A stretch of 64,000 nt of DNA. Source: a virus. Both the position numbers and the translations under genes were made by a program. Within the stretch, counting starts at the first letter, position 1; the number at the start of each line of letters is the position of its first letter. The DNA is taken from IMG/VR virus record IMGVR_UViG_3300005573_001011, positions 55,081 through 119,080 of that record; one strand, 5' to 3'. Below, one piece after another: positions 34,615-63,326 of this stretch. The notes under the pieces are model-generated. The model searched no databases. It saw nothing but the letters and a program-made list of their open reading frames with translations, and was not told the DNA's origin.

Positions 34615-34959
34615 ATGAAGTTTAGAACCGACTTCGTAACGAACAGTTCTTCAGCTAGTTTTATCTTGTTTGTGGAATCGACTGCCGCAAACAAGCAAGA
34701 GTTTGAAGAATCGCTAAAAAAACTTTTTGCAGAGTATAGTAGAGACTTTCAGAAAGAAGAGTCTCTTCCAAAAAGTGAGCAAATAAAGCACATTTTTGGA
34801 AGTCTCTATGCTATTAATGACATGACAATCATGTTTAATGACTACGATGACGTCCCCCACTACATGCGGTACATGCTTCTGAGACATCATATAGACGATG
34901 ACTTGCTAAAGTTTGGCATTAAGAGTTTAAAGTTGGAGATTGTCAGAAACCACATCTAG
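34615..34959 (+). CDS. FVTNSSS-motif family protein
   Basis: N-terminus MKFRTDFVTNSSSASFI is shared with 60876-61439 and 62994-63326. Confidence 0.8.
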   Translation: MKFRTDFVTNSSSASFILFVESTAANKQEFEESLKKLFAEYSRDFQKEESLPKSEQIKHIFGSLYAINDMTIMFNDYDDVPHYMRYMLLRHHIDDDLLKFGIKSLKLEIVRNHI

Positions 34960-35032
34960 CTACATGTTGCTATGAGAACAAAAAATAAATAACGTGTGGC
35001 TTATCTTGTAGCAAAAAATAGGAGGAAAAAAG

Positions 35033-35809
35033 ATGGGGATTAGGAAAAAGTTAAACATACTGATAGCTCTTAGAGAAGCTCTGTCCGAGCAACTCACGAA
35101 AAAAGAGCATAAGAAGTTTGTGCTCGAAGAAGCTTCAGACTACGAAGTTGTGCACTTAGTAGCGACTGGAAAGTTTCCGAAAGCGATAGCTGACTTAAAA
35201 GAAGAGTGGAGAGTGTTTGACGAAATTCGTCTTTATGTTTTAGAGAACTTCGGTAAATTCTGCGAGAAAGCTGGTGTCGAAGCTGCAGAAGAGTTTGTGC
35301 TTGAGTTCGATCCAGTTTCTCAGCTTGGTCTCTCTTCTTCGAAAAAATTCTTGGCTGAAAGTTACTTGATTGACGAGAACGGAAAGATAGTGTCTGAAGA
35401 TGTTCTTCGAGAAGTTGTAAATGTTGTAGAAAACTTGGAGGAAGGAGCAGCTGGTAAATTAATACGAGCGCCTTTAAAACTGATCAAAGGTGCCAAGAAG
35501 CCCGCTGCAACGAAAGCAGCTGCTACGCAAAAGTTGAGAAACGCGTTAGCAGATATTGGGCAAAGAATATCGAATGGGAAAAAAGCTCTGGCTCAGTTAG
35601 CCCAAAGGATAAAAACATCCTCTGGTACTGCAAAAGAGAGTTTAAAAGCTCAGCATAAGAAACAAGCAGAACACTTAAAGAAACTTAGAGCAAAACAAGC
35701 ACAACTAAAAGCAGAACTCATTAAGACAAGAGCCAGAAAAATAGCTCTTGGTGCTGGAGCAGCTGCTGGTGTCGCTGGTGCTTATGCCTACACGAAAAAG
35801 AAGAAGTAA
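35033..35809 (+). CDS. probable internal virion protein (acidic N-half, basic C-half)
   Basis: Paralogous to the next gene (FVLEEASDYEVVHLVATGK vs FFMKEATTHDLLSFLTCGK); GAACAAA motif and AGGAGG upstream. Confidence 0.55.
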   Translation: MGIRKKLNILIALREALSEQLTKKEHKKFVLEEASDYEVVHLVATGKFPKAIADLKEEWRVFDEIRLYVLENFGKFCEKAGVEAAEEFVLEFDPVSQLGLSSSKKFLAESYLIDENGKIVSEDVLREVVNVVENLEEGAAGKLIRAPLKLIKGAKKPAATKAAATQKLRNALADIGQRISNGKKALAQLAQRIKTSSGTAKESLKAQHKKQAEHLKKLRAKQAQLKAELIKTRARKIALGAGAAAGVAGAYAYTKKKK

Positions 35810-35859
35810 GTGAGGGTTGCCAAAAGTCTGTTTTCACTAACTTCTTTTTCAAATAAAAT

Positions 35860-36561
35860 ATGACAAGCAAAGCTTTTACAAATTCTTTAAGAGTTGCTGC
35901 GTCTTCTCTTTGCGAAGACAGACAGCTTGCACGATTCTTCATGAAGGAGGCTACTACACACGACCTCCTCTCTTTCTTGACCTGTGGTAAGCTCGTTAAA
36001 CGGAGTAGTCTTTTCTCAGAACTTTTCTTAGTGAGTGCTGTAAAAGAATCTGTTGCACAATGCTCGTGTTTGCTAGAGGGAATTGTTGAGAAAGATGTTG
36101 TCCAGGATTTTGTAGATGAGTTAGAGACACTTGAAAAGAGTGTGTTGCAAGAAGGCATTCGTTCGTGGCTTGCATCCAAACTTGGTTGGAAAATCGCTAA
36201 AAAAGCTGCTCTAGCTGGTGCTCTTGCAGCGGTTTTCCATACTACTGGAATTCCTATAGCGACGGGAATTCTTGTTGCTTTATTGATTTATGCAGCGTAC
36301 AAGATCTTTACGAGATACTTCTCAAAAGCTGCTAGAGCGTGTTGGGGCAAGTCTGGAAAAGAAAGAGCTCTTTGTATATTGTCGTATAAAGTAAACGCTT
36401 TAAAAGCACAAGAAAGAGAACTGCTCAGTTCTATGTCACTCTGTTCTAAAGCGAAACAGCCAGAGAAATGCAGGGAAGCGATACGAAAGAAGATTTCTAA
36501 AGTACGTGACAAAATAGACCGAGCGAGGAGTGAAGCAGCAGTTCTTAGACTCGAGTTCTGA
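35860..36561 (+). CDS. probable internal virion protein with hydrophobic hairpin
   Basis: VLQEG junction, then hydrophobic segment and Cys-containing basic tail. Confidence 0.5.
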   Translation: MTSKAFTNSLRVAASSLCEDRQLARFFMKEATTHDLLSFLTCGKLVKRSSLFSELFLVSAVKESVAQCSCLLEGIVEKDVVQDFVDELETLEKSVLQEGIRSWLASKLGWKIAKKAALAGALAAVFHTTGIPIATGILVALLIYAAYKIFTRYFSKAARACWGKSGKERALCILSYKVNALKAQERELLSSMSLCSKAKQPEKCREAIRKKISKVRDKIDRARSEAAVLRLEF

Positions 36562-36562
36562 A

Positions 36563-36778
36563 ATGAGAATAGAAGACATAACACCACAGAATGTGTTTAG
36601 CATTTCTTCGAGTGAGCTTAGTAGTTTGCATAGAAAAGTCCACCAGCTCTACGGAATGTTTAAGAAGACAAAGACAGCAAGTACAATTCTTACTCTAAAA
36701 AACAAGCACGATCTTATATCTAAAGAATTAGAAAAAAGAAAGTTTCCACACTCTAAGTCAGATTTGGAGGAGAACTAG
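36563..36778 (+). CDS. small hypothetical protein
   Basis: ATG immediately after the previous stop; stop overlaps the next start. Confidence 0.55.
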   Translation: MRIEDITPQNVFSISSSELSSLHRKVHQLYGMFKKTKTASTILTLKNKHDLISKELEKRKFPHSKSDLEEN

Positions 36779-37209
36779 TGCAAGCGATTTTAACTCGGTT
36801 TAGAAGTTCTGAGCAGGGAACTCTTGGCACTCTTTTTATCCCAGAAGTAAACTTCTCTTGTTACACTATAGAATTGCCATGGTTAGATAATAAACCACGT
36901 ATAAGTTGCATTCCAATTGGTGAATATAAAGTAATTCCATATTCTTCTGCTAAGTTCGGGCAGACTTATCTATTGCTAGGAGTTCCGAACAGAACAGGAA
37001 TACTAATACATACTGGTAATCTAGCTGGAGACAAGTCCAAAGGTTATATAACTCATTCCCAAGGGTGCATTCTCGTTGGGAAAAAGACAGGACTAATTAG
37101 CGGCCAGAAAGCGGTTCTCTTTTCTGTTTCTGCTATGGTCGAACTAAGATTAGCTGTTGGAAAAAATCAGTTTAGTTTAGTAGTGAAGGAGGGTTTGAAA
37201 GAATGTTAG
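36778..37209 (+). CDS. DUF5675-like protein (putative cell-wall enzyme)
   Basis: TLG.L..CYTIELPW..N....SCIP.GEY, VPNRTGILIHTGN, SQGCILVG. Confidence 0.75.
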   Translation: MQAILTRFRSSEQGTLGTLFIPEVNFSCYTIELPWLDNKPRISCIPIGEYKVIPYSSAKFGQTYLLLGVPNRTGILIHTGNLAGDKSKGYITHSQGCILVGKKTGLISGQKAVLFSVSAMVELRLAVGKNQFSLVVKEGLKEC

Positions 37210-37769
37210 AAATTCTAAGTGCGATTTTTGGTGGAGGTGCCACTGGTTTACTTGGTGGTGTTTTGACGAAAATTTTCGATTACTACACTAATAAGCAAAG
37301 ATTGGAGCAACTTAGAGAACAGTGGAAACATGAAGAAGCAATGCTAGAGAAAGAGTCTCAAAGAGACGTACTAATAGCTAAACAAGAAGCTGTAGCAAAA
37401 ATAGAAGCTGCAGAAGCAGAAGCTATGGCAGAATCGTTCAGGTCAGATAAAGCTTCGTATTCAGCAAGTCTTCCTTTTGCGCAACTTCCCCCTAGTGTCC
37501 AGAAGTGGGTTGCGATAGCTCTCGTATTTGTAGACTTCGTAAGAGGAATTACAAGACCTGGTTTGACGATCTACTTGTGTGCTGTTTCTACTTACTTCTA
37601 CATTAAGTTGCAGCAAATTCTAGCTCAAGCTGGGACTCCTATTTCTGCGGAACAGGCTTTCGAGTTGAGCAAAATGATTGTTGTAGCAATGCTTTACTTA
37701 ACAACCACAGCCGTTGGTTGGTGGTTTGCAAGTAGGACAAAGCTAAACGATATTATTCAGAAAAAGTAG
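37203..37769 (+). CDS. holin-like membrane protein
   Basis: GGGATGLLGG N-terminus, coiled coil, VRGITRPGLT, C-terminal TM ending WWFASR; adjacent to the DUF5675-like gene. Confidence 0.6.
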   Translation: MLEILSAIFGGGATGLLGGVLTKIFDYYTNKQRLEQLREQWKHEEAMLEKESQRDVLIAKQEAVAKIEAAEAEAMAESFRSDKASYSASLPFAQLPPSVQKWVAIALVFVDFVRGITRPGLTIYLCAVSTYFYIKLQQILAQAGTPISAEQAFELSKMIVVAMLYLTTTAVGWWFASRTKLNDIIQKK

Positions 37770-37817
37770 TTTATACTACTTTTTTGCGAAATAAAAAAAC
37801 GGAAGGAGAAAAAAACA

Positions 37818-38666
37818 ATGGAAAGAAAGGAATTAAGTAGAGAAGAACTGCATAAGAAGATTCTTTATCCAGTGGTTCGTGTACGGACAGAAAAAGCTGG
37901 CGGGTCGGGGACCATAATCTACTCAAAGCCAGATGCGAAAAATCCAGAAGAGTACTTGAACTTCGTTATGACGTGCGAACACGTTATAGACGACGCTATT
38001 ACCACGAAAGACGATTGGGATAGTCTTCTTAAAAAGCAGATCAAGAAAGAGTTTACAAAGCAAGTTCTTGTAGAAGCATTCGACTACGTCTACCTTTCTC
38101 AAGTGAATAGCATTAATTCTCATAAAGCGGAGATAGTAGCATACGACAAGCACAAAGATATCGCTCTTTTAAGAGTACTGACACCGAAGAAGTTCGAACA
38201 TGTAGCTGAAATAATTCCGAAAGAAAATATTCCGTCTATAAAATTGTTTACGAATGTTTACGCGTGCGGTTGTTCGCTAGGTCATGAACCGTTCGCTAAC
38301 TGGGGCCAGATTACTTTCTTGAGAGAAGACATCGACAACCAGCCATATATAATGAACAATGCTTCAAGTATATTCGGAAACAGTGGGGGAGCTTTATTCT
38401 TGGCTGAGACTGGACAGCAGGTTGGAATTTCGGCAAGAATTACTGGGTTACAACTGGGCTTCGGGTTTGACGTTATAACTTGGATGGGCTTTGCTATCCA
38501 CCCAGAAACGATCTATAAGTTCTTTGAAGAACAAGAACTGAGATTTATATTCGATCCGAACGACACTTACTGGGATGCCTTAGAGAGACGAAAAGAAAAA
38601 CAAGAGAAAGCACTAATGACGATGAGAGACGATAGCAAAGCAGAAACTCCTTTGACACCAAGGTAA
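37818..38666 (+). CDS. trypsin-like serine protease
   Basis: GSGTII, MTCEHV, DIALL, GNSGGALF. Confidence 0.9.
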   Translation: MERKELSREELHKKILYPVVRVRTEKAGGSGTIIYSKPDAKNPEEYLNFVMTCEHVIDDAITTKDDWDSLLKKQIKKEFTKQVLVEAFDYVYLSQVNSINSHKAEIVAYDKHKDIALLRVLTPKKFEHVAEIIPKENIPSIKLFTNVYACGCSLGHEPFANWGQITFLREDIDNQPYIMNNASSIFGNSGGALFLAETGQQVGISARITGLQLGFGFDVITWMGFAIHPETIYKFFEEQELRFIFDPNDTYWDALERRKEKQEKALMTMRDDSKAETPLTPR

Positions 38667-38721
38667 AAGATTACAGCTTAGTTAGTGTTGTAGAACAAAA
38701 TAATGGAGGGTACAATAGAAA

Positions 38722-39012
38722 ATGGATAGTCAGACTTTTGCGCTTGTGCTAGCTGGATTAGTCTCACCGTTTGTTACGTGGCTAGTGAAAAAAGTCTTTA
38801 GTAATCCCCAGAGTTACGGAGCTCTTTGGTTAGCTTTTGTCGTTTCAGTTGTTTTAGCTTTTATAGCTGAAGCTTACACAAAGGGCTTCACGGGTTTTCC
38901 GTCCATTCTTGAACCAGCTGCTATTGTTTCGTGGTTCGTCGATAAAGCACTTGTGGTTTTTGGCATTAGCCAAGTTGTTTACCAAAATTTAAAGTCTAAG
39001 TTAAGCTTATAA
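38722..39012 (+). CDS. small three-TM membrane protein (holin-like)
   Basis: Three hydrophobic segments, basic C-terminus, GGAGG RBS. Confidence 0.6.
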   Translation: MDSQTFALVLAGLVSPFVTWLVKKVFSNPQSYGALWLAFVVSVVLAFIAEAYTKGFTGFPSILEPAAIVSWFVDKALVVFGISQVVYQNLKSKLSL

Positions 39013-39031
39013 GTAGCGGAGGTATAAAAAG

Positions 39032-39271
39032 ATGTCTATACTTGACGAGTATTTAAGCTATGTAGAAGAAGCTAAGAAAAAGAGGAAGTTCTGGATTCAA
39101 AAAGCTATTGAGAAACCAGGTGCATTGCATAGAGCGCTTGGTGTTCCTCCTGGCGAAAAGATCCCGGCTAAAATGTTAAAAGTTAAACCGAGTGATTCAC
39201 CACGTCTAAAGAAAATGAAGATTCTGGCTCAAACTTTAAGGAAGATAGCAAAAAGACGAAAGAAAGGTTAA
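39032..39271 (+). CDS. small basic protein
   Basis: WIQKAIEKPGALHRALGVP..KIP..LAQTLRK; acidic leader ILDEYLSYVEE. Confidence 0.7.
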   Translation: MSILDEYLSYVEEAKKKRKFWIQKAIEKPGALHRALGVPPGEKIPAKMLKVKPSDSPRLKKMKILAQTLRKIAKRRKKG

Positions 39272-39729
39272 TGCATAAAGCTCTTTCTCTAACTTTTTTT
39301 TTGCTTTTCTCGCTAGTTTTTCAGTGCTCTGCTAGTTCTACACAAGAAACCAAAACTATCTTTTTCGAAAATGCTGGTTACTCGATTACAGTACCAGCTT
39401 GGGTTCCAGACTTCAGCAAGTGGTACGGTTCAGTTGTTTCAAAGAGAGTAGAGGGATCTCAAAGAATACTTATCTTCTGGCGTGCTAGCAACCCTCAAGA
39501 TAGTAGTCAAACTGTTTTCGCTCTCTCGATTGTAGACTTGAATAGTGAAACACCATGGAAAATCTTCCATATAGGTGTTAAAGATAGACAAAGGACAAAG
39601 CATTGCACAGATTTGCAGTTTCTTTCTACCTCACGCCAGTCTTTCTTCTTTACAGAAACCAAAGATTTTCCACCCTATGAAAGTGTTCTTAACTTACTCT
39701 TGTCGTTTTTGCCGTGTGTCTCCTTGTAA
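39271..39729 (+). CDS. exported hypothetical protein
   Basis: Signal-peptide-like N-terminus; start overlaps the previous stop. Confidence 0.6.
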   Translation: MHKALSLTFFLLFSLVFQCSASSTQETKTIFFENAGYSITVPAWVPDFSKWYGSVVSKRVEGSQRILIFWRASNPQDSSQTVFALSIVDLNSETPWKIFHIGVKDRQRTKHCTDLQFLSTSRQSFFFTETKDFPPYESVLNLLLSFLPCVSL

Positions 39730-39750
39730 AACATTACTTGTAGCTAGAGT

Positions 39751-39778
39751 GGGGCTCTCTTGAGCCCCAGTTTTTTTT
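39751..39778 (+). terminator. intrinsic terminator
   Basis: GGGGCTC-tctt-GAGCCCC followed by a T8 run. Confidence 0.85.
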
Positions 39779-39815
39779 CGGCCAATGCACAAGGTCAGCT
39801 TAGAACAAACTTTAA

Positions 39816-40013
39816 ATGAAGTTCCTAAAACAACAGTTCAAGATAAGAAAGCTCGATAAAAGGAGAGCTCGGAAACCTAGACTACGTATGCCTGTGCCAA
39901 AGCCAGGCTGGGCTTTTAAAGACAGAAAAAAGTACGATCGAAACGAAAACAAAGAGATAGAAAGAGAAGCTCTTCGTCTAGCTCTCAGCTCAGACAATGG
40001 AGTGGAGGAGTAG
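39816..40013 (+). CDS. small basic hypothetical protein
   Basis: 65-aa Arg/Lys-rich ORF just after a GAACAAA motif. Confidence 0.55.
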   Translation: MKFLKQQFKIRKLDKRRARKPRLRMPVPKPGWAFKDRKKYDRNENKEIEREALRLALSSDNGVEE

Positions 40014-40017
40014 CTGT

Positions 40018-40863
40018 ATGCAAAACCAAGACATTCTTCTTGAGTCGTACTTGCGGTTTTTGGACACGGAAGAAAAGTTTTTCATAGTGAACGAAGACTT
40101 GTTAACTAAGTCTAAAGAATGGTTAGAAAAGAAGAAAGAAGAGGTAGAACGAGGCTTTAGAAAGAATCTTGAATTACTCAAAAGATTTTTACTAAAGTAC
40201 GGTGTAGACGTAGAAAGAGTGTCTAGAAAAGCTAGACACTTGACACATACGATAAAGAGTGACTTAAAAGCTAGAAGAGATCCGAAAGACGTAGCTGCTA
40301 AAATTACTAAAGGAATGAAGAAGATAGTTCTCACGGAACTCAAATCTATTAAAGAGAGAAGTGGTGAACTAACTTTAGGAGAAAAAGTTATCGGAGCTAT
40401 TGTTTTAATGATAGGGCTACTAGTGGCACTGTTCGTTGTAGACCAACTAGTTGCACCATTAATTGGACTTGGAGCTGCCTCTCCTCTAGCTATTGCTTCT
40501 GCACCACTAGCTTCTTTTATTAGAATGTGCGTTATTGCACCACTTCTTGAAGAAACCTTTAAGAGAATTGCTGTCTTAAAAGATTATCCCTTCGTTTATA
40601 CGACAGTTTTCGGGCTGACAGAACTTGCACAGTACGTTGTAAGTGCTTCTGCTTTTGGTATGTCTCTTCCAGCTATGGTAACAGCAAGAGTACTATCGCT
40701 ATCTTTTCACTATCTAACGACACTAATTCAGTATCGTTTCCACAAGAAAGCCGAAGAAATAGGAGAAAAAGAGAAGAGCTATCTTGGATACATTATTGCT
40801 GTGGCTATTCACGCATCATGGAATAGCTTAGCTACTCTGTGCTTTCTTTTAGCACGACGATAA
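40018..40863 (+). CDS. PrsW/CPBP-like intramembrane glutamic/metalloprotease with soluble N-terminal region
   Basis: APLLEETFK (EExxK), FGLTE, SFH and IHASWN (HxxxN) in TM segments; start placed at ATG 40018. Confidence 0.7.
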   Translation: MQNQDILLESYLRFLDTEEKFFIVNEDLLTKSKEWLEKKKEEVERGFRKNLELLKRFLLKYGVDVERVSRKARHLTHTIKSDLKARRDPKDVAAKITKGMKKIVLTELKSIKERSGELTLGEKVIGAIVLMIGLLVALFVVDQLVAPLIGLGAASPLAIASAPLASFIRMCVIAPLLEETFKRIAVLKDYPFVYTTVFGLTELAQYVVSASAFGMSLPAMVTARVLSLSFHYLTTLIQYRFHKKAEEIGEKEKSYLGYIIAVAIHASWNSLATLCFLLARR

Positions 40864-40885
40864 GATTAAGTCTGGAGACTAAACT

Positions 40886-41782
40886 ATGCCTTTGTCGTCA
40901 ACTGTTCTTGTTCCAGACCTGCAATATTGGGTAAGTAAGTTTATTCTATCTAGCACTCTAAGCAAATACCAGATAGATGTTCCAGTTGAGCTTACAGAAA
41001 GTATTATGCAGGACTGTGGAGGTGACAAATCTTTTATTAGACTCCTTTTCGACGACAATTGGCCAAAGACTCAGACTTCGTACAGGTGGCTTTATAGAGA
41101 GCATACGACTAGGTTTAGTTGGCCAAGCACAATTCTAACGAGAATGATGGTTTACGCAAGGTCAGCTAAACTTTACATATGTGACTCTGACGATACTAGT
41201 GTTTGTAATGTAAATATTTTTAACTTGCAAGATGACGACTTAGAAATGCTAGATCGTCTTTTAGAGTATAGAGTTTTCGATTCAACATCTGTAATAGACG
41301 ATATAACTCTTGCGGGCCTTAGCACGAAACTCTCTAAGCTGATTTGGGTATTCTTGTCTGCAGTAATAAAAGGCGATTACTCTTCGTATGACAATACAGA
41401 CGTTTGGGCGACGTCTACTGTAGTTTTAGAAAACTGTTATGAAGCCTACGTTGTAGAGAAGATCTTTTCTCTAGTTTCTTTTAAAGATGCACTTATGGCG
41501 ACAATCTACTTTGGAGATTCTACATCCGAAGTTCTAACTTCTGCTGAAATAACCAGTCTCCAAAGTGTAACTGACAAAAAAGATAGAATTTACCAGTTTA
41601 GTGGAACTGGATATAAGTACATTTGCTATCCGTCTTACCTCGGTTCGAGTTCGTTTGTTGAGTCGAAGACAAGAATAGCTATTTCATTCCAAGATCCGTA
41701 TGAAGTAAATATTTCCGGAGTTAAGTACTTAGTTTACCGCTCTTCGAACGTTCTTGGAGCGATTAACATTAGATTAACCTAG
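40886..41782 (+). CDS. probable virion structural protein
   Basis: First gene of the baseplate-like block; repeated DSTS motifs. Confidence 0.55.
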   Translation: MPLSSTVLVPDLQYWVSKFILSSTLSKYQIDVPVELTESIMQDCGGDKSFIRLLFDDNWPKTQTSYRWLYREHTTRFSWPSTILTRMMVYARSAKLYICDSDDTSVCNVNIFNLQDDDLEMLDRLLEYRVFDSTSVIDDITLAGLSTKLSKLIWVFLSAVIKGDYSSYDNTDVWATSTVVLENCYEAYVVEKIFSLVSFKDALMATIYFGDSTSEVLTSAEITSLQSVTDKKDRIYQFSGTGYKYICYPSYLGSSSFVESKTRIAISFQDPYEVNISGVKYLVYRSSNVLGAINIRLT

Positions 41783-41834
41783 AAGCATGACTATTGACAA
41801 AGTCTCAGAAAGTGTTCTTCTTGAGGGGAGATAG

Positions 41835-48182: not shown

Positions 48183-49634
48183 ATGCCAAGAAGACATCAT
48201 CCAGAGTTTAAGAAATTTATTGTTTCCAATATTACAATGCCAACAAGAGAAATGTATGAGATTGCTAGAGTCAAGTTTGGTTACTCTGGAACATACCAAT
48301 CATTTATTACTTTAGTTTCTTTGCTTCGCCCCAAACCGCAGTATCCGACAAGCGAAAACAGAGGATTAGTAAACTACATATCCTCTAATTTGTCTAAGCC
48401 AACAAGAGAGTTATATGCAGACGCAAAACGTGAGTTCGGTTATACTGGCAAGTATTCTACCTTTAGAGGTTTGCTTTGGAGAGTAAGGACCCATATAGAA
48501 GCAGAAAAAAGTCATGCTGAGTCAGGCAGTGTTTCAACTAACCAGAATGAAGCAAGTAATTTTTCTAGTTTCGAAACTTCGTTTGGGCCAAGAGGCAGAA
48601 AAGAACTCAGCCAAGAAGACTTTATTCGTATTCTGAAAGCTAAAAGAGGTCACGCCAAGATTCTAGATTTGTGCAAGTTTTTTGAGTGCACACCCGGCGA
48701 GCTACTTAGTCTTGTAGAAAAAGAAAGACAGAAAGGAGTCGAGATAATAGTAGACGACGACTTCGTTTCTCTTTCAGACGGAACAATTACTGAGCAACCA
48801 GCTCCGTTAACTGAACCTCTTAGTAAAGATAGGGAGATAAAATTTGCAGTCGTTAGTGATTTGCATTTCGGATCTAAGTCATGTCAGATAACAGCTCTTA
48901 ACGAGTTTTGTGAAGACTGTAGGAACGAAGGAGTGAAGATTATTTTAGTGGCTGGAGATTGTGTCGCTGGATACCAAGTTTATAAAGGACAGCAGTATGA
49001 AGTCTATGCCGAAACCGCTAACGAGCAAGAAGAATCTCTATTGAGAAATCTTCCAACTGGATTTGAGTGGTACATCATGGGCGGTAACCACGACCAATCT
49101 TTTATAAAGAACGGTGGTGGCCACAATCCACTTTTTGTTGTTGCAGCAAGAAGGCCAGATATCACTTTCTTAGGTTTTGAGCAAGTAATTGTTCCAGTTC
49201 TACATGGTGTGGATTTGCTTATGTGGCATCCGAGCGGAGGTGGGGCTTATGCTTTGTCGTATAAAATGCAAAAGTTTATAGAGCAAAACGCATTTAAAGA
49301 GCTTAAGAAGATTACTTCATCCAGCAAAGATAAGCCAACTCTGAGATTTGTGGTGGCGGGACACTTCCATACAATGATAATGGCTATGTTTGGAAGTATC
49401 TGTGGTCTCCATGCTGGTTGCTTCGAAGGTGAGACTAGCTTTACAAGGAGTCGCGGTTGGGTTCCCCAAATCGGTGGTTGGATAATACACGCTTGGCTGA
49501 ACTCAGAAGGAAATTTAGAGAGCTTTATTCCTAGATGGTATGCGAAACGTGAGATAGAGAACGACTGGAAGAATTTCATTCATTCTTATAAAGACGAAAC
49601 CACAAAATTAAAGAAGCCTTTGTTTGAGAAGTAA
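48183..49634 (+). CDS. calcineurin-like metallophosphoesterase with duplicated N-terminal helical domain
   Basis: SDLHFGS, AGD, GGNHD, HP, GHFH; N-terminal repeat PTRE(M/L)Y..A...FGY.G.Y..F twice. Confidence 0.85.
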   Translation: MPRRHHPEFKKFIVSNITMPTREMYEIARVKFGYSGTYQSFITLVSLLRPKPQYPTSENRGLVNYISSNLSKPTRELYADAKREFGYTGKYSTFRGLLWRVRTHIEAEKSHAESGSVSTNQNEASNFSSFETSFGPRGRKELSQEDFIRILKAKRGHAKILDLCKFFECTPGELLSLVEKERQKGVEIIVDDDFVSLSDGTITEQPAPLTEPLSKDREIKFAVVSDLHFGSKSCQITALNEFCEDCRNEGVKIILVAGDCVAGYQVYKGQQYEVYAETANEQEESLLRNLPTGFEWYIMGGNHDQSFIKNGGGHNPLFVVAARRPDITFLGFEQVIVPVLHGVDLLMWHPSGGGAYALSYKMQKFIEQNAFKELKKITSSSKDKPTLRFVVAGHFHTMIMAMFGSICGLHAGCFEGETSFTRSRGWVPQIGGWIIHAWLNSEGNLESFIPRWYAKREIENDWKNFIHSYKDETTKLKKPLFEK

Positions 49635-54877: not shown

Positions 54878-55490
54878 TGGTTAACTCCTTTCCGTTTGCT
54901 TCTCTTTTTTTGCCGAACTTCTCTAAAAACATTTTTGCTGTGTCTGTCCATCCTAACTGAGTTACGAAGGATAGAAGAGCTTTTGTCAACTTTTTTGGTA
55001 ACGAAAAGTGATAGCCATAGTTAAGTAAAAGTCTTATCGTTTCAGCGGCTGCTACAGCTCGATATTCTTCTTGTTCTCTCCAATTTCTTCTATATGACAA
55101 GTGAATTTCAACAGCTTCCGCTAATTTGACAGCGCACTTTCTAACTACTCTACTCGATATTCTTCCAGACTGCAAGATTCGTTCCACTATGTCTAAAGAT
55201 GAAAAGTACCATTCTTCTAGATACTCTTCTCTGACTTTTTGCGAAGCTAACGGGAGCAAATACGAGAGGACTTTTTTATAGTCTGTCCTATAAAGAAGGC
55301 CAAGAGATCTTCGTAAAGATCTTAAAACTTCGTTAATTTCTTTTTGCTTTGAATTTTTAGCTAGTTTTCTAACGACCAGCAACTTAGCATTTGTGTACGT
55401 AGCTCTTTTGCAAGAGTCTTGACTATTGCATACTGGTAAAGAAATACACTCGTAGCAACCGGGGCTTGCCATGTATTCATGTAAATTCAC
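54864..55490 (-). CDS. CxxCIxxPxC-module paralogue 2
   Basis: LHEYMASPGCYECISLPVCNSQDSC; close duplicate of 55494-56099. Confidence 0.82.
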   Translation of the reverse strand: MNLHEYMASPGCYECISLPVCNSQDSCKRATYTNAKLLVVRKLAKNSKQKEINEVLRSLRRSLGLLYRTDYKKVLSYLLPLASQKVREEYLEEWYFSSLDIVERILQSGRISSRVVRKCAVKLAEAVEIHLSYRRNWREQEEYRAVAAAETIRLLLNYGYHFSLPKKLTKALLSFVTQLGWTDTAKMFLEKFGKKREANGKELTSESV

Positions 55491-56099: not shown

Positions 56100-56137
56100 G
56101 CAATGCTCCTTTACAAGTTAGTACTTTCCAAGAAAGG

Positions 56138-56180
56138 AATATATATAGATTGCAGCCGCCTCTTTTTGCGGGAGAACAAA
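56138..56180. promoter_or_regulatory. divergent promoter region: CTATATATATT (minus, 56138-56148) and GAACAAA (plus, 56174-56180)
   Basis: Same back-to-back arrangement as 2374-2429. Confidence 0.6.
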
Positions 56181-56270
56181 TTAACAAGTGGTGGGTTAGC
56201 TGCCCTATGCGACTTTAAAAAAACTAAAACAAGTCTCTAGTCGCGAGACTTTAGAAAGGAGTAAGCTACC

Positions 56271-57014: not shown

Positions 57015-57109
57015 CAGCAGTAAAACATTTAGCTAGCTCGCCACTTCTGGCTTCCGCTTCGATATAGAACAAAAATAAAAGGGTTCTACACTTTTTTCGA
57101 GGGGAGAAG

Positions 57110-57772
57110 ATGGATAAAAAAGAAAATATACTAATTGTTGCAAAAGAGCGGTATAGTGAGTGTCTTTCTGACGACATAAAAAGTCGCAACAGAGAGCAGA
57201 AAAAACCAGCTGGTTTCGTAGAAATATTCGAGATAGAGAAAGATGGGTCTCAAAAGAAGTTATACGAAAAAAGCAATCTGGTTGTTTATCAAGGGAGAGA
57301 AGCAGTTCTTTCTCGAACGTTTAATATAACTAATCCATCTATTGGCCCAACGAAGGATGAATTTTTATGCTGGTTTGGCCTTGGTGATGGCGGATGCAAT
57401 CCTGGTGATCCACTAGATCCTATACCTCCAACGAATAAAGATACGGATTTAGTTAGTTCTGTTGCTATAAGCACAACAGATGCTACTTGTGCTGATTTTT
57501 ACGACGGAGCTTACCACAAACACCCGTTCGATTCAGTTGAGTTTTTACAAGATCCTGATAACGACAATTCTTGGATTATATCTAGAATAACTATAACCAT
57601 TTCGTCAGAAGACGCTAACGGTGAGAACTTAAACGAAGCTGGGCTCTTCGTTGCAGCGAGTGATGAAGGAGGATATGCTGGTCCGTTCCACCTGTACGCT
57701 AGAATTACATTCCCAACTATTGTAAAGTCGTCTTCAAGACAACTTCTTTTCGTATGGTACTTATACTTCTAG
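57110..57772 (+). CDS. baseplate/tail-associated structural protein
   Basis: SNLVVYQGRE, FGLGDGG, NEAGLF, ARITFPTIVK..W; next to the sheath gene. Confidence 0.7.
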   Translation: MDKKENILIVAKERYSECLSDDIKSRNREQKKPAGFVEIFEIEKDGSQKKLYEKSNLVVYQGREAVLSRTFNITNPSIGPTKDEFLCWFGLGDGGCNPGDPLDPIPPTNKDTDLVSSVAISTTDATCADFYDGAYHKHPFDSVEFLQDPDNDNSWIISRITITISSEDANGENLNEAGLFVAASDEGGYAGPFHLYARITFPTIVKSSSRQLLFVWYLYF

Positions 57773-57840
57773 TTTCTAAAAGGAGACGTTTAATTTAGAG
57801 TGAAAAAATAGCGTAGATAAAAAATTAGGAGAGGAAGAAT

Positions 57841-59790
57841 ATGGCAAACATTTCACCAGGGGTCTATACTAAAATTACTGACCTCTCGACTTATGTCTCA
57901 GAAGTTCCAGGAACGATAGGATTTATCGCAGCTTTAACGGAAAAGGGAAGAGATAATGAACTAGTTTTTCTGGGGTCGAGAAGCGAGTTAATTTCCGAAT
58001 TTGGTGAGCCAAACATCTCCCTGTACGGGAAAAACTTCGGTCAAGGGCTTTATTGTGCTTACAATTACTTGGGTGAAGCTGGGTCTTTGTACTTCATGCG
58101 AGTTCTCCCAAGTGACGCAACTTACTCGAATTTGCGGTTATTAGCTGATTACGAAGCTTCTGACTCTACAGCTACTATTACTTTCGACTACGTAAGTAGT
58201 CTTAACACGAAAAACGAAATTAAGACAAATTTGGAAGCTTCTGGTACATCAGTAATCGGGATCTTTTACCCGATTGGAAGAGGGGTCTACTACAATGGAT
58301 TAGCGATACGATTAACGAAACATGCGAATCCAGTTCTAAGTGGTATTTATATTCTCGACGTTTATGAGAAGCAAAGTGACGGTAGTGACGTTATTATAGA
58401 GTCGTTCGAAGTTTCGTTCGACCCAAAAGCTACCGACTTGAACGGAGATTCACTCTGGATTTCTTACGTTTTAGAGACGTATTCTGACGTACTAAGATTC
58501 GATATGGTAACTTCAAGCGGTGACTATACTAGCGGCTACGACCTTATTGTGAAGACTTACGACAAAGAAATTGGTACTGTTTCAGTAAACTTAACTAATG
58601 GAAGTGCCTCAATTACAGACAATAAGCAAAACTTCTCAGATTGGTCGTACGTTAGCGGAACAACTTACAACTATTTAGTAATAGCAAAAGATTCCAGAGG
58701 AACAACGATATGGGGTTGGCTTGGAACTGCTAGTGGTCCTGGTTACGAGACTTGTACAATTCACGACGATAGAATAGTTGCTACTTCTTCTCAGAAGTGG
58801 AATGGTGATGTAGCTTCCTTCGATACGAATGGACCCATTACGTATGAAGTTAAAAAGGCTTTTGGAGAAATAGAAAATGCGTTTGTGTCCGCGGAACCAG
58901 CTCCTCTAAAAGAAGGGTCTGACGGAAGCTTAATATCGAGTGGTGGGACTTTAAATACTACTGTTGCAACTGAAATTCTTTCTCAAGCGTATGCTGGAAC
59001 AATAGACGATAAAGTTCTCGATACTGAAAACATCTACTTTAGCATTGTATTCGATTGTGGCTACCCAACTTCTGTGAAACAGTCTGTTTCTACTTTAGCA
59101 CAGACACGAAGAGATTGTGTGGCGATTCTTGACAATGGAGACAACGCAACGTTCGAAGCCTCCATTGCAAAGAGAACAAGTGACCACACTTTCAATACTT
59201 ACTTCTGTGCTCTCTATGAAGAGTACAATAAGATCTACGACACATTTACTGGTCAGGACATCTGGGTTTCACCAGTTTACCATATGTCTTACATATTGCC
59301 GAGAAACGATAGAGTGTCAGAAATATGGTATGCGGCTGCTGGATTTAATAGAGCTGCAATTGACACAATAAAAGAGCTTCGATTTAATCCAAAGCTCGGG
59401 CAAAGAGACCAGATGTACTTAAAGCAGATAAACCCGATAGTTAAGTTTGCCCAGGGATACACTCCATGGGGGCAGCTTACAACCCAGAGCAAACCAAGTG
59501 CAATGCAAGATCTCAATGTAGTTCGGTTAGTACTGTATGTCAAGAGAGCTCTAGAACAGTATTGCAGAAACTACGTTTTCGAAATGAATGATAGCATCAC
59601 TTGGAACGCAGTTAAAGTTGATGTAACTAACTTCTTAGAAGACGTGCGTCAGAAGAGAGGGTTATATAGCTACTCGGTAGAAGTTGGTGCGAGCGACTAC
59701 GAAAAGAAACGCAAGACATTCCATGTTAATGTAATATTAGAACCAACACGAGTGAGCGAGAAGATCGAACTCAACTTCTTCATCAAGTAA
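57841..59790 (+). CDS. contractile tail sheath protein
   Basis: ISPGVY..DLS, FGEP, RRDCVAILD, WYAAAGFNR, RDQMY..QINPI, WGQLT, LNVVRL..FEMND. Confidence 0.95.
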   Translation: MANISPGVYTKITDLSTYVSEVPGTIGFIAALTEKGRDNELVFLGSRSELISEFGEPNISLYGKNFGQGLYCAYNYLGEAGSLYFMRVLPSDATYSNLRLLADYEASDSTATITFDYVSSLNTKNEIKTNLEASGTSVIGIFYPIGRGVYYNGLAIRLTKHANPVLSGIYILDVYEKQSDGSDVIIESFEVSFDPKATDLNGDSLWISYVLETYSDVLRFDMVTSSGDYTSGYDLIVKTYDKEIGTVSVNLTNGSASITDNKQNFSDWSYVSGTTYNYLVIAKDSRGTTIWGWLGTASGPGYETCTIHDDRIVATSSQKWNGDVASFDTNGPITYEVKKAFGEIENAFVSAEPAPLKEGSDGSLISSGGTLNTTVATEILSQAYAGTIDDKVLDTENIYFSIVFDCGYPTSVKQSVSTLAQTRRDCVAILDNGDNATFEASIAKRTSDHTFNTYFCALYEEYNKIYDTFTGQDIWVSPVYHMSYILPRNDRVSEIWYAAAGFNRAAIDTIKELRFNPKLGQRDQMYLKQINPIVKFAQGYTPWGQLTTQSKPSAMQDLNVVRLVLYVKRALEQYCRNYVFEMNDSITWNAVKVDVTNFLEDVRQKRGLYSYSVEVGASDYEKKRKTFHVNVILEPTRVSEKIELNFFIK

Positions 59791-59857
59791 GAGTAAGGTA
59801 GCAAAATAGAAGTAAAAGTTTCTGGTGAGAGTAAAAAAAAGTAATAGAAAAAACTGT

Positions 59858-59902
59858 CAGCTAGCGAGGAAGTTTTCCTAGATCCTCGCTAGCTGTTTTT
59901 TT
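59858..59902. terminator. terminator after the sheath gene, between convergent blocks
   Basis: CAGCTAGCGAGGA..TCCTCGCTAGCTG stem plus T-run. Confidence 0.85.
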
Positions 59903-59952
59903 CATATAGAATCTTAGCTTCCCACAACCCCATACTCTTTTTCCCTTCATAA

Positions 59953-60078
59953 CTATTCTTCCACTAATTCTTCTGAAACTCTGGACTCTACTTGGTTACA
60001 AATGTAATTGACTGCATTTACTATTATATTACGAGCTCTTTCAGTAAACTCCTTTAGACATATTAAACACTTCGTCAT
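59953..60078 (-). CDS. possible 41-aa ORF (MTKCLICLKEFTERARNIIVNAVNYICNQVESRVSEELVEE)
   Basis: ATGA overlap with the amidase stop; no other support. Confidence 0.3.
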   Translation of the reverse strand: MTKCLICLKEFTERARNIIVNAVNYICNQVESRVSEELVEE

Positions 60079-60752
60079 TTTTCAATAACTCCATGAGATT
60101 GTTTAACTTCGAGAAACTTTATAATACCAGTGCTAATCGCAGAAGTCAAATTATCTTGTACGTCTTCCCTATTAAGAAACAGTTCTTCTCTAAGGTTCTT
60201 TATTATGCCGCACTCTATAAGAATAGATGGACACTCAGTTTTAAGTACTACTAGCTTGTTGTTCTGGAAGATACCGTAACTTTGGCTATGTGTTGTAAAT
60301 GTCCTTGTATAATGGAGTGCTGGAACGAAGTCTCTTGAAGTCATTTCTCTACCGACAAAGTGGGCTAGCATTAGACTGTCGTAGAAACTTCCGTTGTTTC
60401 TTGAGACAAAGATGGAAAACCCTCGATATCGGTAGACATAGGGAAGCAAACTTTTTCTAACGGAATCATGGTGAATCGAAACTAAGACAGTGCTTCCTTT
60501 CTGAGTTGCGATCTCAGCTCTGTTTCTAGTAGGTTCGTCAAGAATAAGAAAGCACTTGACGCCAGCTTGTTCTAGTTTTGTCTTAATCCCTTGTGAAACT
60601 CTCCTATTGTATACTACTTCTGGAACGCCAGAAGCACTAATACATCCTGGATCTTTTCCTAGTTGGTGTCCGACGTCAATAGCTACGAGCGCGAAAGAAC
60701 TAGTGCAGAGAAGGCAAAGCACCGGGATACAAACTAGTATTTTAGTTGTCAT
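60075..60752 (-). CDS. N-acetylmuramoyl-L-alanine amidase (Amidase_3) with signal peptide
   Basis: IDVGH, E..YN, VSIHHD, LVVLK..PSILIECG. Confidence 0.9.
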   Translation of the reverse strand: MTTKILVCIPVLCLLCTSSFALVAIDVGHQLGKDPGCISASGVPEVVYNRRVSQGIKTKLEQAGVKCFLILDEPTRNRAEIATQKGSTVLVSIHHDSVRKSLLPYVYRYRGFSIFVSRNNGSFYDSLMLAHFVGREMTSRDFVPALHYTRTFTTHSQSYGIFQNNKLVVLKTECPSILIECGIIKNLREELFLNREDVQDNLTSAISTGIIKFLEVKQSHGVIEK

Positions 60753-60875
60753 TTTCTTTTCTTTCTTGGAGTAAGGGAAATTTTCCCGTACAAGCTAGAT
60801 AGAATCTTGAAAAGTTTAGCTTCTTTCCTATTGCGGATCGCATAGTCAAGAATTGTTTTTCTTATTCTTTCTAAA

Positions 60876-61439
60876 TCAAGGATTTCTTCGTTGCTGTGCA
60901 TCTTTTTTACTCCGTATTTTTGACACTTTTTGCTTCAGCTTCCGAAACTGGCTTTTCCACTTTTCTTCTTCGGATATTAAATTCCGTGCCAGCTTCCGAA
61001 CCCGACTTTTCCACTTCTTTTCTTCTTCGATATTAAATTCCGCACCAGTTTTTATTTTGCCATCTTCTAGGTCTAGAAACACTTCTCTCTCAACTCTTTC
61101 TAGAGTATCCATATTAGACTTAACTTCGAACTGCGAAAAAGTGTTATCCCATGAAATATTTTGGCACGTAGAGATCATAACCATAACATCATGACTTCCT
61201 TTGTAAATGAAAGTAGTGTAATTTGGAGTCCACGGGAAGATTACGTTTATTTCAGAGAACTTATTGTCTTCTATAAACTTCATTACTTTTTCTTTTGAGA
61301 AATGATCTTCTGTATGAAGAAACTTAAATTCTTCGTAAAATTTTTTCGCGAGAAGTTCGAGAGCTTGTATAGTAGTGAGTCCTCTTAAGACAAAACTTTG
61401 CGAAGAACTATTCGTCACAAAGTCAACTTTTATTTTCAA
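60876..61439 (-). CDS. FVTNSSS-motif family protein
   Basis: MKIKVDFVTNSSSQSFV; GGAGG RBS; C-terminal EEEK(K)WKS..RKL duplication. Confidence 0.8.
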   Translation of the reverse strand: MKIKVDFVTNSSSQSFVLRGLTTIQALELLAKKFYEEFKFLHTEDHFSKEKVMKFIEDNKFSEINVIFPWTPNYTTFIYKGSHDVMVMISTCQNISWDNTFSQFEVKSNMDTLERVEREVFLDLEDGKIKTGAEFNIEEEKKWKSRVRKLARNLISEEEKWKSQFRKLKQKVSKIRSKKDAQQRRNP

Positions 61440-61464
61440 TTGTTGTCCTCCCTTTTGCTACTTC

Positions 61465-61680
61465 TCAAGTTTCTTGCAGCAGTAATTTGTCGAGTTCTTT
61501 AGCTAAGTCCGTGGCTATCTCACATACGATAGCCATCGATTCTTCTTCGTCACTCGAAACACAGTTAACAATTTTCTGTAATCTTTTATTCTCTGTAATT
61601 ATATCGAAGATCTTTATTCTAGTTTTGTTTTGCAGCTCCTGTGCTTTGCTTTCCATTTTTCCTTCTCCTCTCTTAAGCAT
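61465..61680 (-). CDS. small hypothetical protein
   Basis: Helical ORF; likely starts at MESKAQ after GGAG. Confidence 0.55.
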   Translation of the reverse strand: MLKRGEGKMESKAQELQNKTRIKIFDIITENKRLQKIVNCVSSDEEESMAIVCEIATDLAKELDKLLLQET

Positions 61681-61696
61681 ATTTTCGAGAGTGAGG

Positions 61697-61732
61697 TATT
61701 GGCAGGTAGTTTTTTAGTCTAACCTGCCAATA
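61697..61732. terminator. hairpin (terminator or processing site)
   Basis: TATTGGCAGGT..ACCTGCCAATA 11-bp stem. Confidence 0.55.
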
Positions 61733-61740
61733 TCCTTATG

Positions 61741-61953
61741 TCATTTGCCATGCTTAGTGTCCAGTTCATTTACCAACTCTTGTGAAGCTCGAAGTATCTC
61801 TTTTTCTTCCACTACTCCAGTTAAATCGAGCCCTCTTAAGATAGCAATCTTGATGAGTTCTCGCCTGAGGAACGACATCTCTTTATAGTATATTCTAGCT
61901 AGAACCCATCCCAATGCACAGAAAATGAGAAAAACGTACGCTAAAACACTCAT
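61741..61953 (-). CDS. small single-TM membrane protein
   Basis: N-terminal hydrophobic helix; AGGAG RBS. Confidence 0.65.
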   Translation of the reverse strand: MSVLAYVFLIFCALGWVLARIYYKEMSFLRRELIKIAILRGLDLTGVVEEKEILRASQELVNELDTKHGK

Positions 61954-62005
61954 TTTTCAGCTCCTTTTTTGTGCCACACAAAACGTTCCTGTATCTGGGC
62001 AGAGC

Positions 62006-62986
62006 TTAGAAGATGGCGAACGGACATTGGTTTGGCTCTTCTTGAAGTAGAGACCTGGTCCTTGCAAAGACTTCACTATTCCAGGCAGATCTTATTGTGC
62101 TATTAGTTAGAGGAATTGCGGTATCGTTTCCTGCAAACGAACAAGGCTTTAACTTCATATCTGGAGTTATGTAAGCTGACATTCTGGCGGCTTCGCACGT
62201 ATCGATACACTGCATCTGCTTCTCACTAAAACATTTTGCCTCCGTCAGTATAGAACATACAAGACATGAATCCAAACCTACAGAAAAAGAACATTTTGCA
62301 TTTACTAGTGCCGCCGCAAATTCTTTTACTTGGTCTTTGCTAAGGCAGTTGCTTTTTAAGCTTACACCTCTTCCAACGGGCTTAAAGAGTAGGAATATTA
62401 CTGCGTTAAGGTTGTCTATGTCCACATTGCTATTCCATACGTCTTCACCATTTAGCAGTCTTATTGCTTTCTGGAGGCTTGCTGAAGACAAAACCATGTG
62501 GATATTTGTCTTGATCTTAGCTTGTTGAAGTATCCGGATTGCACTATATGTAAATTCTTTTCCATAGTCACTAACCGCTACTGCACCCACATACTCTTTA
62601 GAAATACAGGCATGTTTTTCGCTGAAGTCTCTGCCAGAGGTAGTGTAGTTTGGGATAACACCTTTTTCTCGAGTGTACTTAAGGATTTCTTCGAAATCAG
62701 CATGTTGGTCTGGGTCACCCCTACCACCTAAAGCCACTTGAGTTACGTAGGGTGAAGATTCGTCAATGATTTTTTTATACTTTTCTAAAGACATATTTTC
62801 TTGTCTTTCTTCACCCTGGTAGCAGAACGAGCAGTTTCCTTTACACTCTCCCATGATTCCTATATCCAGAAGAGAAGGGAATTCGAGAGAGAAGGGGTCG
62901 TCGTAACCGTTAATTCCGGTTCTAATCTCTAGACCACTTCTCTCATCGAAGATAATTGCATAGCTTTTCGTTCGTATTATCTTCAT
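62006..62986 (-). CDS. radical SAM protein with short twitch/SPASM-like C-terminus
   Basis: CKGNCSFC, QVALGGRGDP, PNYTTSG, CEAARMSAYI..PCSF..CP. Confidence 0.9.
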   Translation of the reverse strand: MKIIRTKSYAIIFDERSGLEIRTGINGYDDPFSLEFPSLLDIGIMGECKGNCSFCYQGEERQENMSLEKYKKIIDESSPYVTQVALGGRGDPDQHADFEEILKYTREKGVIPNYTTSGRDFSEKHACISKEYVGAVAVSDYGKEFTYSAIRILQQAKIKTNIHMVLSSASLQKAIRLLNGEDVWNSNVDIDNLNAVIFLLFKPVGRGVSLKSNCLSKDQVKEFAAALVNAKCSFSVGLDSCLVCSILTEAKCFSEKQMQCIDTCEAARMSAYITPDMKLKPCSFAGNDTAIPLTNSTIRSAWNSEVFARTRSLLQEEPNQCPFAIF

Positions 62987-62993
62987 TAACAGC

Positions 62994-63326
62994 TTACCTC
63001 AGAAACTCGTGAAAAGACCATTTCCACGATTTACTTTCGCCACCCTCTCTCAAGACGTAGTCATAGACGTGACCAACTATCGTTCCATCTTCGTCACCAA
63101 AGACGCAAATTCTAGTTTCTCTTGGTCTAAAAAGAATATTGTTTTCTTCAACTGACTTTAAGAATTCTTCTTCCGTGTAGTTGTAGCTATAGTAGTGATT
63201 AAAATCGTGGAGTAGGTGTATGTTTTCTTTTGCAAAATCTACTAGTGTCTTTTCGGTTTCGCTAGTATTGGTAATAATATATGAAGTAGATGAACTGTTA
63301 GTTACAAAACTTCGTCTAAGTTTCAT
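62994..63326 (-). CDS. FVTNSSS-motif family protein, directly upstream of the radical SAM gene
   Basis: MKLRRSFVTNSSSTSYII; AGGAGG RBS; 7-bp gap to the radical SAM start. Confidence 0.82.
   Translation of the reverse strand: MKLRRSFVTNSSSTSYIITNTSETEKTLVDFAKENIHLLHDFNHYYSYNYTEEEFLKSVEENNILFRPRETRICVFGDEDGTIVGHVYDYVLREGGESKSWKWSFHEFLR

Follow-up and report, generated by a model that had tools for sequence, protein, structure and literature searches.

A conserved N-terminal tag on unrelated phage proteins and its association with a radical-SAM enzyme

Why should proteins that have little else in common begin with the same short run of residues, and why should one of them be encoded directly before a radical S-adenosylmethionine (SAM) enzyme? 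The question is raised by IMG/VR virus record IMGVR_UViG_3300005573_001011, of which a 64,000-nt stretch (positions 55,081 to 119,080, hereafter the window) was analysed. Three open reading frames (ORFs) in the window, here called clients 1, 2 and 3, start with the motif MKx(R/K)xxFVTNSSSxS(F/Y), and client 3 immediately precedes the radical-SAM gene. Surveys of viral and cellular sequences reveal the motif as a widespread N-terminal tag on unrelated protein bodies, and find it repeatedly in the company of homologues of this enzyme. It is very likely that tag and enzyme are functionally coupled. That the enzyme directly binds and modifies the tag is the reading favoured here, with moderate confidence.

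Three tagged proteins in one myovirus

The 119,080-bp record comes from a myovirus (tail sheath, 57841-59790; amidase endolysin, 60075-60752). It is about 38% complete according to CheckV, so further clients may lie outside the known part. No close cultured relative was found: window positions 40000-64000 had no megablast match in the phage collection, and a tblastn search with client 3 (P0003) likewise gave none.

The motif heads exactly three ORFs in the record (Table 1). A six-frame regular-expression search found FVTNSSS at three places only, in the window and the full record alike, and the back-translated motif pattern matched three times, against no match in 100 dinucleotide-preserving shuffles. 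A tag profile (A5, described below), applied to the whole record at E<=1, picked out the same three ORFs and no other, with scores of 49.7, 48.1 and 40.3 bits (E 5e-14 to 4e-11 per genome). All three fit the definition of the tagged family: a tag at residues 1-18, with F7 and the invariant N10-S11-S12-S13. The TTG start of client 2 is preceded at 7 nt by a GGGAGG Shine-Dalgarno sequence and places the motif at its usual offset. Between the end of client 3 and the ATG of the radical-SAM ORF there are 7 bp, and a GAGG falls within the 3' end of client 3. Client 1 lies 27 kb from the enzyme gene, on the opposite strand.

The shared motif and the 7-bp spacing had both been claimed in a sequence-only reading of the window. 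Translation, pattern search, shuffles and profile bear out the former; the spacing is as claimed, and the enzyme does contain the quoted strings QVALGGRGDP and PNYTTSG. That the three proteins share little else holds for pairwise comparison. At the level of family profiles (hhalign), clients 1 and 3 align over their first 49 columns only (probability 98%, E 3e-13).

A widespread tag on unrelated bodies

The tag has the consensus M-K-(I/V/L)-(K/R)-x-(D/G)-F-(V/I)-(T/S)-N-S-S-S-x-(S/A/C)-(F/Y)-(I/V)-(I/V), and spans 16-18 residues. At E<=0.001, profile A5, which has 36 columns and was built from 90 diverse tags, matches 28,831 cluster representatives (50% identity) out of 1.84 billion; 140 of its 150 best matches begin at residue 1. 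Literature searches found no description of the tag or of a tag-enzyme module.

Scanning IMG/VR with the client 3 alignment supplied 49 tag loci. In these and the phage's own genome the motif occurs 169 times, in 151 cases exactly six residues past the start codon. Counting only ORFs of 60 aa or more, the loci hold 150 distinct tagged ones. All have the same orientation as the query gene, and they form co-directional arrays of up to nine small members (for example, at locus L044). Tagged proteins are short, with a median length of 125 aa (range, 61-232), and most are acidic: the median isoelectric point (pI) is 4.8, and 76% lie below 5.5.

Behind the tag, these proteins diverge. BLASTP at E<=1e-4 sorts the 153 bodies (the 150 plus the three from the window, each taken from residue 19 onwards) into 51 clusters, of which 31 have a single member; client 2 groups with two other tagged ORFs (from loci L022 and L034), and client 1 with one. 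No family was matched by more than one member in a Pfam scan of 119 tagged proteins, and some bodies look like zinc ribbons. The window proteins themselves have no significant Pfam or NCBIfam match; their only PHROG matches are weak and N-terminal, to phrog_7397 (E 0.025 and 0.0067).

The family of client 3 is well conserved. This family comprises 107 database proteins at E<=0.01, nearly all aligned over their full length at 40-65% identity; in the ESM Atlas, client 3 falls among unnamed viral clusters only. In the 30 members that were aligned, N10, S11, S12 and S13 are invariant (30/30), as are D30, Y46, D78, G85 and R93, and the body is that of a conserved family of about 110 aa with FGDEDG and DYxLRxGGESKSF motifs. 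Since these relatives were gathered by whole-protein homology, motif-based picking of sequences does not explain why N-S-S-S is invariant. Client 1 has nine relatives, all of which retain M1, K2 and the entire stretch D6-F16. Client 2 is nearly alone in the database, with its own entry and one relative at 87%, and at pI 9.4, with a basic repeated C-terminal tail, is an exception among the mostly acidic tagged proteins.

The tag is under selection as protein. Third codon positions within it are near-random (entropy, 1.3-1.8 bits) while the residues are fixed, and the serines at positions 11-13 are encoded by both AGY and TCN codons. Among 153 tags, S11 is AGT in 92, AGC in 29, TCA in 13, TCT in 11, TCC in 4 and TCG in 4; S12 is TCA in 50, AGT in 44, TCT in 28, AGC in 18, TCG in 8 and TCC in 5. 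This codon usage rules out a DNA-level repeat.

The twelve top-scoring A5 matches (P0122-P0133) carry two tags per protein. In most cases the internal tag begins with MK, as if two adjacent genes had been read together. In P0127 and P0133 the internal tag lacks Met, and true tandem fusions may exist.

The radical-SAM enzyme

The enzyme matches Pfam PF04055 (E 4.1e-8; 34.0 bits, against a cut-off of 29.5) and phrog_7293, of unknown function (E 6.2e-34). Pfam SPASM is also matched (E 0.013), at 16.2 bits, under the cut-off of 21.5. Among 14 aligned homologues three features stand out: the cluster motif C48-x3-C52-x2-C55, invariant in 14/14 (some relatives use CX7CX2C); a conserved stretch of about 40 residues that precedes it (F13, G18, G24); and four invariant C-terminal cysteines, C241 (DSC), C264 (CE), C282 (PCSF) and C321. 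Four cysteines would suffice for one auxiliary cluster, as in a twitch-like domain.

Profile searches of solved structures gave BtrN as the best-scoring radical-SAM match (E 2.3e-7), confined to about 50 residues of the C-terminal auxiliary-cluster region (query residues 274-325). SuiB (5v1q; E 3.3e-6) matches nearly full length, and SkfB (6efn; E 8.8e-4) and viperin (E 0.003) follow. A PPR-repeat match in the same set was rejected as spurious. No NCBIfam model reaches its cut-off for the enzyme, the best partial matches being SPASM-type maturases. Its neighbours in the Atlas are viral radical-SAM/SPASM clusters together with a few bacterial ones. Longer proteins, of 410-543 aa, are among them, and SPASM is found in 17-65% of the members of the neighbour clusters.

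Tag and enzyme occur together

Starting from the tags, an enzyme homologue lies within 6 kb in 15 of the 49 loci, always on the same strand. A whole-record search of 27 of the 32 other tag-bearing virus records placed the enzyme elsewhere in 11, which brings the total to 26 of the 42 records examined. All seven tag-bearing records that are at least 46% complete hold the enzyme, and the 16 records without it are all at most 45% complete.

Starting from the enzyme, an alignment of 14 sequences (A4) finds 462 relatives in IMG/VR; a scan with the single protein found none. Among the best 80 of these 462, 60 loci have tags within 10 kb of the enzyme, amounting to 158 tagged ORFs. All but one of these (157) share the strand of the enzyme, and nearly all are downstream of it; the distance is at most 1 kb for 79, mostly directly downstream, and at most 3 kb for 122. 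Genomic co-occurrence with this radical-SAM subfamily was the check that the sequence-only reading had proposed, and the outcome is strongly positive in both directions.

The association is not confined to uncultured phages. Among cultured phages, 172 records contain the enzyme at about 30% identity; these are mainly T4-like, with Klebsiella, Enterobacter, Cronobacter, Citrobacter and Escherichia as hosts. In coliphage RB43 (AY967407.1; loci L147 and L148) ORF169c encodes the enzyme, and ORF116c and ORF121c, at a distance of about 20 kb, both start with a perfect tag. Prokaryote genome bins (Asgard and other archaea, Patescibacteria, Spirochaetia and others) yielded 17 enzyme loci, of which 10 are tagged, with 25 tags. 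Two Spirochaetia loci have the enzyme-tag pair among MFS, LacI and ABC transporter genes, with no phage gene among the 10 ORFs scanned around the pairs. On a 793-kb Asgard contig (L130:5834-7819, plus strand) the enzyme comes directly after an OLD-like AAA_15 plus TOPRIM gene, and the tagged ORF is convergent.

Some details of individual enzyme loci may be recorded here. RB43 ORF168c overlaps the 3' end of ORF169c and resembles the enzyme around its C-terminal CP motif; this points to a frameshift or an annotation split. In the genome to which locus L021 belongs (G015), the enzyme homologue is in two pieces, C1:10048-10599 and 11458-12072, some 860 bp apart; the first contains TGA and TAA stops within the match, and an insertion, an intron or a decayed gene may be responsible. 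At L131 a 1,293-aa ORF with only a weak WD-repeat match follows the enzyme.

Enzyme type and tag variant

Two types of enzyme can be told apart by their cluster motif: type A, GIMGxC...CxxC, to which the window enzyme belongs; and type B, EISTxC...CxxCYK. Tags differ accordingly at positions 6 and 9. At 65 type A loci, 156 of 175 tags are D6/T9 and none is G6/S9; at 22 type B loci, 64 of 71 are G6/S9 and none is D6/T9. The window resembles other type A loci, its type A enzyme being accompanied by D/S6-T9 tags. Such co-variation fits recognition of the tag by the enzyme, with the proviso that two types are two lineages and so represent few independent events.

A finer comparison was made within types, between tags on unrelated bodies (213 pairs from the same record and 4,424 from different records). 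Identity at the variable tag positions is 0.459 within records and 0.398 between them, a difference that none of 300 label shuffles reached; residue 5, for example, is identical in 22.5% of within-record pairs and in 10.1% of between-record pairs. Third-codon identity of the tags is 0.514 within and 0.518 between records. This modest likeness at the residue level fits adaptation of the tags to one partner rather than recent gene conversion.

Predicted structures of the tagged proteins

AlphaFold2 (AF2) models of clients 1 and 3 are confident throughout, save at the very beginning. For client 3 the mean predicted local distance difference test (pLDDT) score is 88.2, residues 1-10 are the only segment below 50, and a strand occupies residues 13-20; for client 1 the mean is 84.0, the only segment below 50 is residues 1-9, and the strand occupies residues 12-22. 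Both bodies form a small alpha/beta sandwich, of which the second half of the tag (SxSFII) is strand 1. The first 9-10 residues, near-invariant in sequence, are nevertheless unpacked in both monomers.

As modelled, then, the motif is made of two halves: a conserved decapeptide and NSSS turn, unpacked in the monomer, followed by a strand of the fold. Only residues 1-10 plus NSSS are predicted to act as a free tag. A predicted complex of the enzyme with client 3, run without controls, had scores of 0.43, 0.19 and 0.31 (median 0.31, against a mark of 0.32) and speaks neither for binding nor against it.

Fold searches with the two bodies gave generic ferredoxin-like or RRM-like likeness and no functional lead. 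With VIA-align, the best match of client 3 was Cas6/RRM-like (Z 4.1; root-mean-square deviation 4.5; 88 residues aligned), and that of client 1 had Z 6.0 with a deviation of 3.4 over 80 residues. The best Foldseek matches had E 1.2 (client 3, against the PDB) and E 6.8e-3 (client 1).

A possible mechanism

These observations suggest a model in which the three window ORFs would be clients of a tag-plus-enzyme module. Residues 2-9 of the tag, as a free amphipathic strand, would dock on the enzyme; residues 14-20, as strand 1 of the body, would anchor the tag; and the invariant N-S-S-S turn would thereby be presented to the SAM cluster. The enzyme would then take a hydrogen from a serine, presumably with its single auxiliary cluster as the electron sink. 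The preferred guess for the product is an aldehyde (formylglycine-like), by comparison with the enzymes anSME and BtrN; epimerisation, a cross-link and Asn-Ser cleavage are alternatives. The choice of a serine carbonyl is suggested by the invariant groups, which are three serine hydroxyls and one Asn, and by analogy with BtrN and anSME, which are dehydrogenases. Oxidation of serine in particular is nonetheless a tentative proposal, which is rather unlikely to prove correct.

The modified proteins probably would serve host take-over or counter-defence, as their small size and acidity, their arrangement in arrays and their location in accessory regions lead us to infer. Extended still further, the model describes a general phage tag-and-modify system: a single compact enzyme would recognise a universal N-terminal peptide and place a reactive or protective group, such as a formylglycine-type aldehyde on an invariant serine, on dozens of unrelated whole effectors; phages would thereby arm a shuffled repertoire of take-over and anti-defence proteins; and the conflict systems of bacteria and archaea would draw on the same handle. 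So broad a scheme is doubtful.

Several points weigh against modification of the tag by the enzyme. The case for it is one of genomic association and structure prediction, and both the co-occurrence and the co-variation are partly confounded by common phage ancestry. Of the 80 enzyme loci, 19-20 have no tag within 10 kb; one of 20 such loci has a variant, EVTNSSS, directly after the enzyme, and the others differ in their neighbours. Operon linkage is not obligatory, as one window client lies far from the enzyme on the other strand and the RB43 clients lie at a distance too. The latter half of the tag is modelled as an ordinary strand of the core, in bodies that are generically ferredoxin-like, and the conservation could be partly structural. 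The rare fusions P0127 and P0133, with their Met-less internal tags, may mean that a free N-terminus is not essential. No RiPP recognition element (RRE; RiPP, ribosomally synthesized and post-translationally modified peptide) or PqqD-like leader-binding domain is among the enzyme's Pfam and NCBIfam matches. As for serine oxidation, that guess is drawn from the invariant serines and a weak likeness to dehydrogenase-type enzymes.

The sequence-only reading had taken the motif for a recognition or modification tag or an autoprocessing site (Asn-Ser cleavage, or conversion of Ser by the radical-SAM enzyme), and had named as the contrary outcome a mere core strand in proteins that do not co-occur with the enzyme. 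Its proposal is supported in part: the genomic association, the fixed offset and the unrelated bodies favour a recognition or modification tag, of which Asn-Ser cleavage and Ser conversion would be candidate outcomes. The contrary outcome is found in part: co-occurrence is present, but the SxSFII half is indeed a predicted core strand.

Other readings of the tag

Might the tag serve for docking only? Tagged proteins would then be interchangeable adaptors or regulators that bring various targets (host proteins, nucleic acids or small molecules) to the enzyme or switch it, and the true substrate would lie elsewhere. Co-occurrence, co-orientation and co-variation fit this idea too, the many unrelated bodies would suit a set of adaptors, and a precedent of sorts exists in the KpAvs2 operon, where (PMC11564622) a small accessory protein binds another protein and the radical-SAM partner's role is given as unknown. 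However, N-S-S-S never varies among the 30 aligned members of a family that was assembled by homology, which is more than strand docking usually demands, and the nearest solved relatives of the enzyme include the peptide maturases SuiB and SkfB, even if the best of them, BtrN, acts on a small molecule. Docking alone seems rather unlikely. A structural explanation is improbable: the motif would be the first hairpin of one divergent, unmodified superfamily, linked to the enzyme by hitch-hiking in related phages. It accounts for strand 1 at residues 12/13-20/22 in both models, for the ferredoxin-like bodies and for a profile match that reaches 49 columns. It does not account for an association that spans uncultured myoviruses, T4-like coliphages and Asgard, Patescibacteria and Spirochaetia bins, nor for the fact that the best-conserved residues, 1-10, are unpacked in either model; and bodies of 61-232 aa, some zinc-ribbon-like, belong to no common family.

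The T4 internal proteins are encoded in arrays of unrelated small proteins and share an N-terminal capsid-targeting sequence of about 10 residues. Arrays of diverse small proteins with a common N-terminal peptide resemble these loci; T4-like phages are among the hosts of the module; and the first 9-10 residues of the tag are predicted to be free. A capsid-targeting or processing signal of this style, which would direct diverse small proteins into the head for injection, with Asn-Ser cleavage and the radical-SAM gene as a mere neighbour, is highly improbable all the same. The tag tracks the enzyme rather than capsid genes, as the more complete records attest; tags stand directly downstream of the enzyme; the enzyme clade co-varies with the tag variant; and in cellular contigs, such as those of Spirochaetia with their MFS, LacI and ABC neighbours, the tag is paired with that gene alone. 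Finally, the peptide could be the by-product of a DNA or RNA element, such as a recombination hot spot or a translation-initiation cassette, in keeping with a motif that always stands at the 5' ends of genes in tandem arrays. The switching between AGY and TCN serine codons, the near-random third positions beside fixed residues, and a third-position identity no higher within than between records reduce the probability of this to almost nothing.

Relation to known systems

The module proposed here, in which an enzyme modifies a tag, has its closest counterparts among RiPP systems with SPASM/twitch maturases, such as SuiB with SuiA (streptide) and SkfB with SkfA. SuiB and SkfB are the only solved peptide-modifying relatives of the phage enzyme in the profile search, and they resemble it in having a radical-SAM core and a Cys-rich C-terminal domain, which in the phage enzyme may likewise bind an auxiliary cluster. 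RiPP systems are also alike in placing an enzyme gene beside several substrates with a common N-terminal recognition sequence. The substrates differ: RiPP precursors are short, whereas the phage clients have 61-232 aa, confidently modelled folds and at least 51 unrelated kinds of body; moreover, the conserved part of the phage clients lies right at the N-terminal end and probably includes the site of reaction.

Serine chemistry on proteins of full size has its nearest precedent in anSME (AtsB), a group of radical-SAM/SPASM enzymes that modify Ser or Cys in a short motif of a whole sulfatase. Here again there are differences. The phage tag reads N-S-S-S-x-(S/A/C)-(F/Y) and lacks the sulfatase motif (C/S)-x-(P/A)-x-R; Pfam finds no sulfatase family in the 119 tagged proteins scanned; and anSME has two auxiliary clusters, whereas the four C-terminal cysteines of the phage enzyme would suffice for one. 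No anSME model is among the 20 NCBIfam matches of the phage enzyme at E<=0.1. BtrN is a twitch-domain radical-SAM dehydrogenase with a single auxiliary cluster, which oxidises C-OH to C=O; its substrate is a small aminoglycoside intermediate and not a protein.

Thus the module resembles both RiPP and anSME systems and yet belongs to neither, given that its clients are apparently folded and varied, that they lack the sulfatase motif, that no RRE is among the Pfam and NCBIfam matches of the enzyme and that no curated family claims it. If the enzyme does modify the tag, whole unrelated proteins would undergo post-translational modification by way of a portable 16-residue handle, for which there are about 29,000 sequence clusters. 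This would provide a first functional clue for a very large block of phage 'hypothetical proteins', a new substrate class for radical-SAM/SPASM enzymology, and a means of directing an enzyme to a chosen protein by a short tag that can be genetically encoded. RB43, with one enzyme and two clients, makes the module directly testable in E. coli.

A radical-SAM protein encoded with a small accessory protein is likewise seen in the KpAvs2-Avap1-Avap2 defence operon. In the report on this operon (Bechon et al. 2024, PMC11564622), the role of the radical-SAM protein Avap1 is described as unknown, and Avap2, a small partner-binding protein, is defined by an HHpred match to DUF6375. With hmmscan, which has a shorter reach than HHpred, DUF6375 (PF19902) was matched by none of the 119 tagged proteins at E<=0.01 and by none of the three window proteins at E<=1. 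It exceeded its cut-off in none of the five genomes that hold the enzyme-tag pair, and, although Avs2 is a STAND NTPase, none of those window ORFs that were scanned is a STAND gene.

Features of the window

Table 1. Tagged proteins and the radical-SAM enzyme gene (window coordinates)
Feature	Position	Strand	Description	Tag
Tagged protein 1 (client 1, P0001)	34615-34959	+	114 aa; starts MKFRTDFVTNSSSASFI	34615-34665
Tagged protein 2 (client 2)	60876-61439	-	187 aa, TTG start; starts (M/L)KIKVDFVTNSSSQSFV	61389-61439
Tagged protein 3 (client 3, P0003)	62994-63326	-	110 aa; starts MKLRRSFVTNSSSTSYI	codons 1-17 (63276-63326)
Radical-SAM enzyme	62006-62986	-	326 aa; putative SPASM/twitch-like C-terminal domain	

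The tail of client 2 (60876-61060, minus strand) contains an imperfect direct repeat, EEEKKWKSRVRKL / EEEKWKSQFRKL. Two small ORFs with hydrophobic stretches and at most weak family matches belong to the same minus-strand run: one of 74 aa (63316-63540) overlaps the start of client 3 by 11 bp, and the other, of 70 aa, occupies 61741-61953. After the 70-aa ORF, between the enzyme and client 2, comes a perfect inverted repeat, GGCAGGT...ACCTGCC (61700-61735, minus strand); it is not followed by a T-run and hence is not in the terminator scan list.

In the plus-strand block, PHROG searches at E<=0.001 left most of the other large ORFs unmatched. Weak PHROG matches were obtained for 48183-49634 (plus strand), to an SbcD-like metallophosphoesterase, and for 37818-38666 (plus strand), to a protease-like family.

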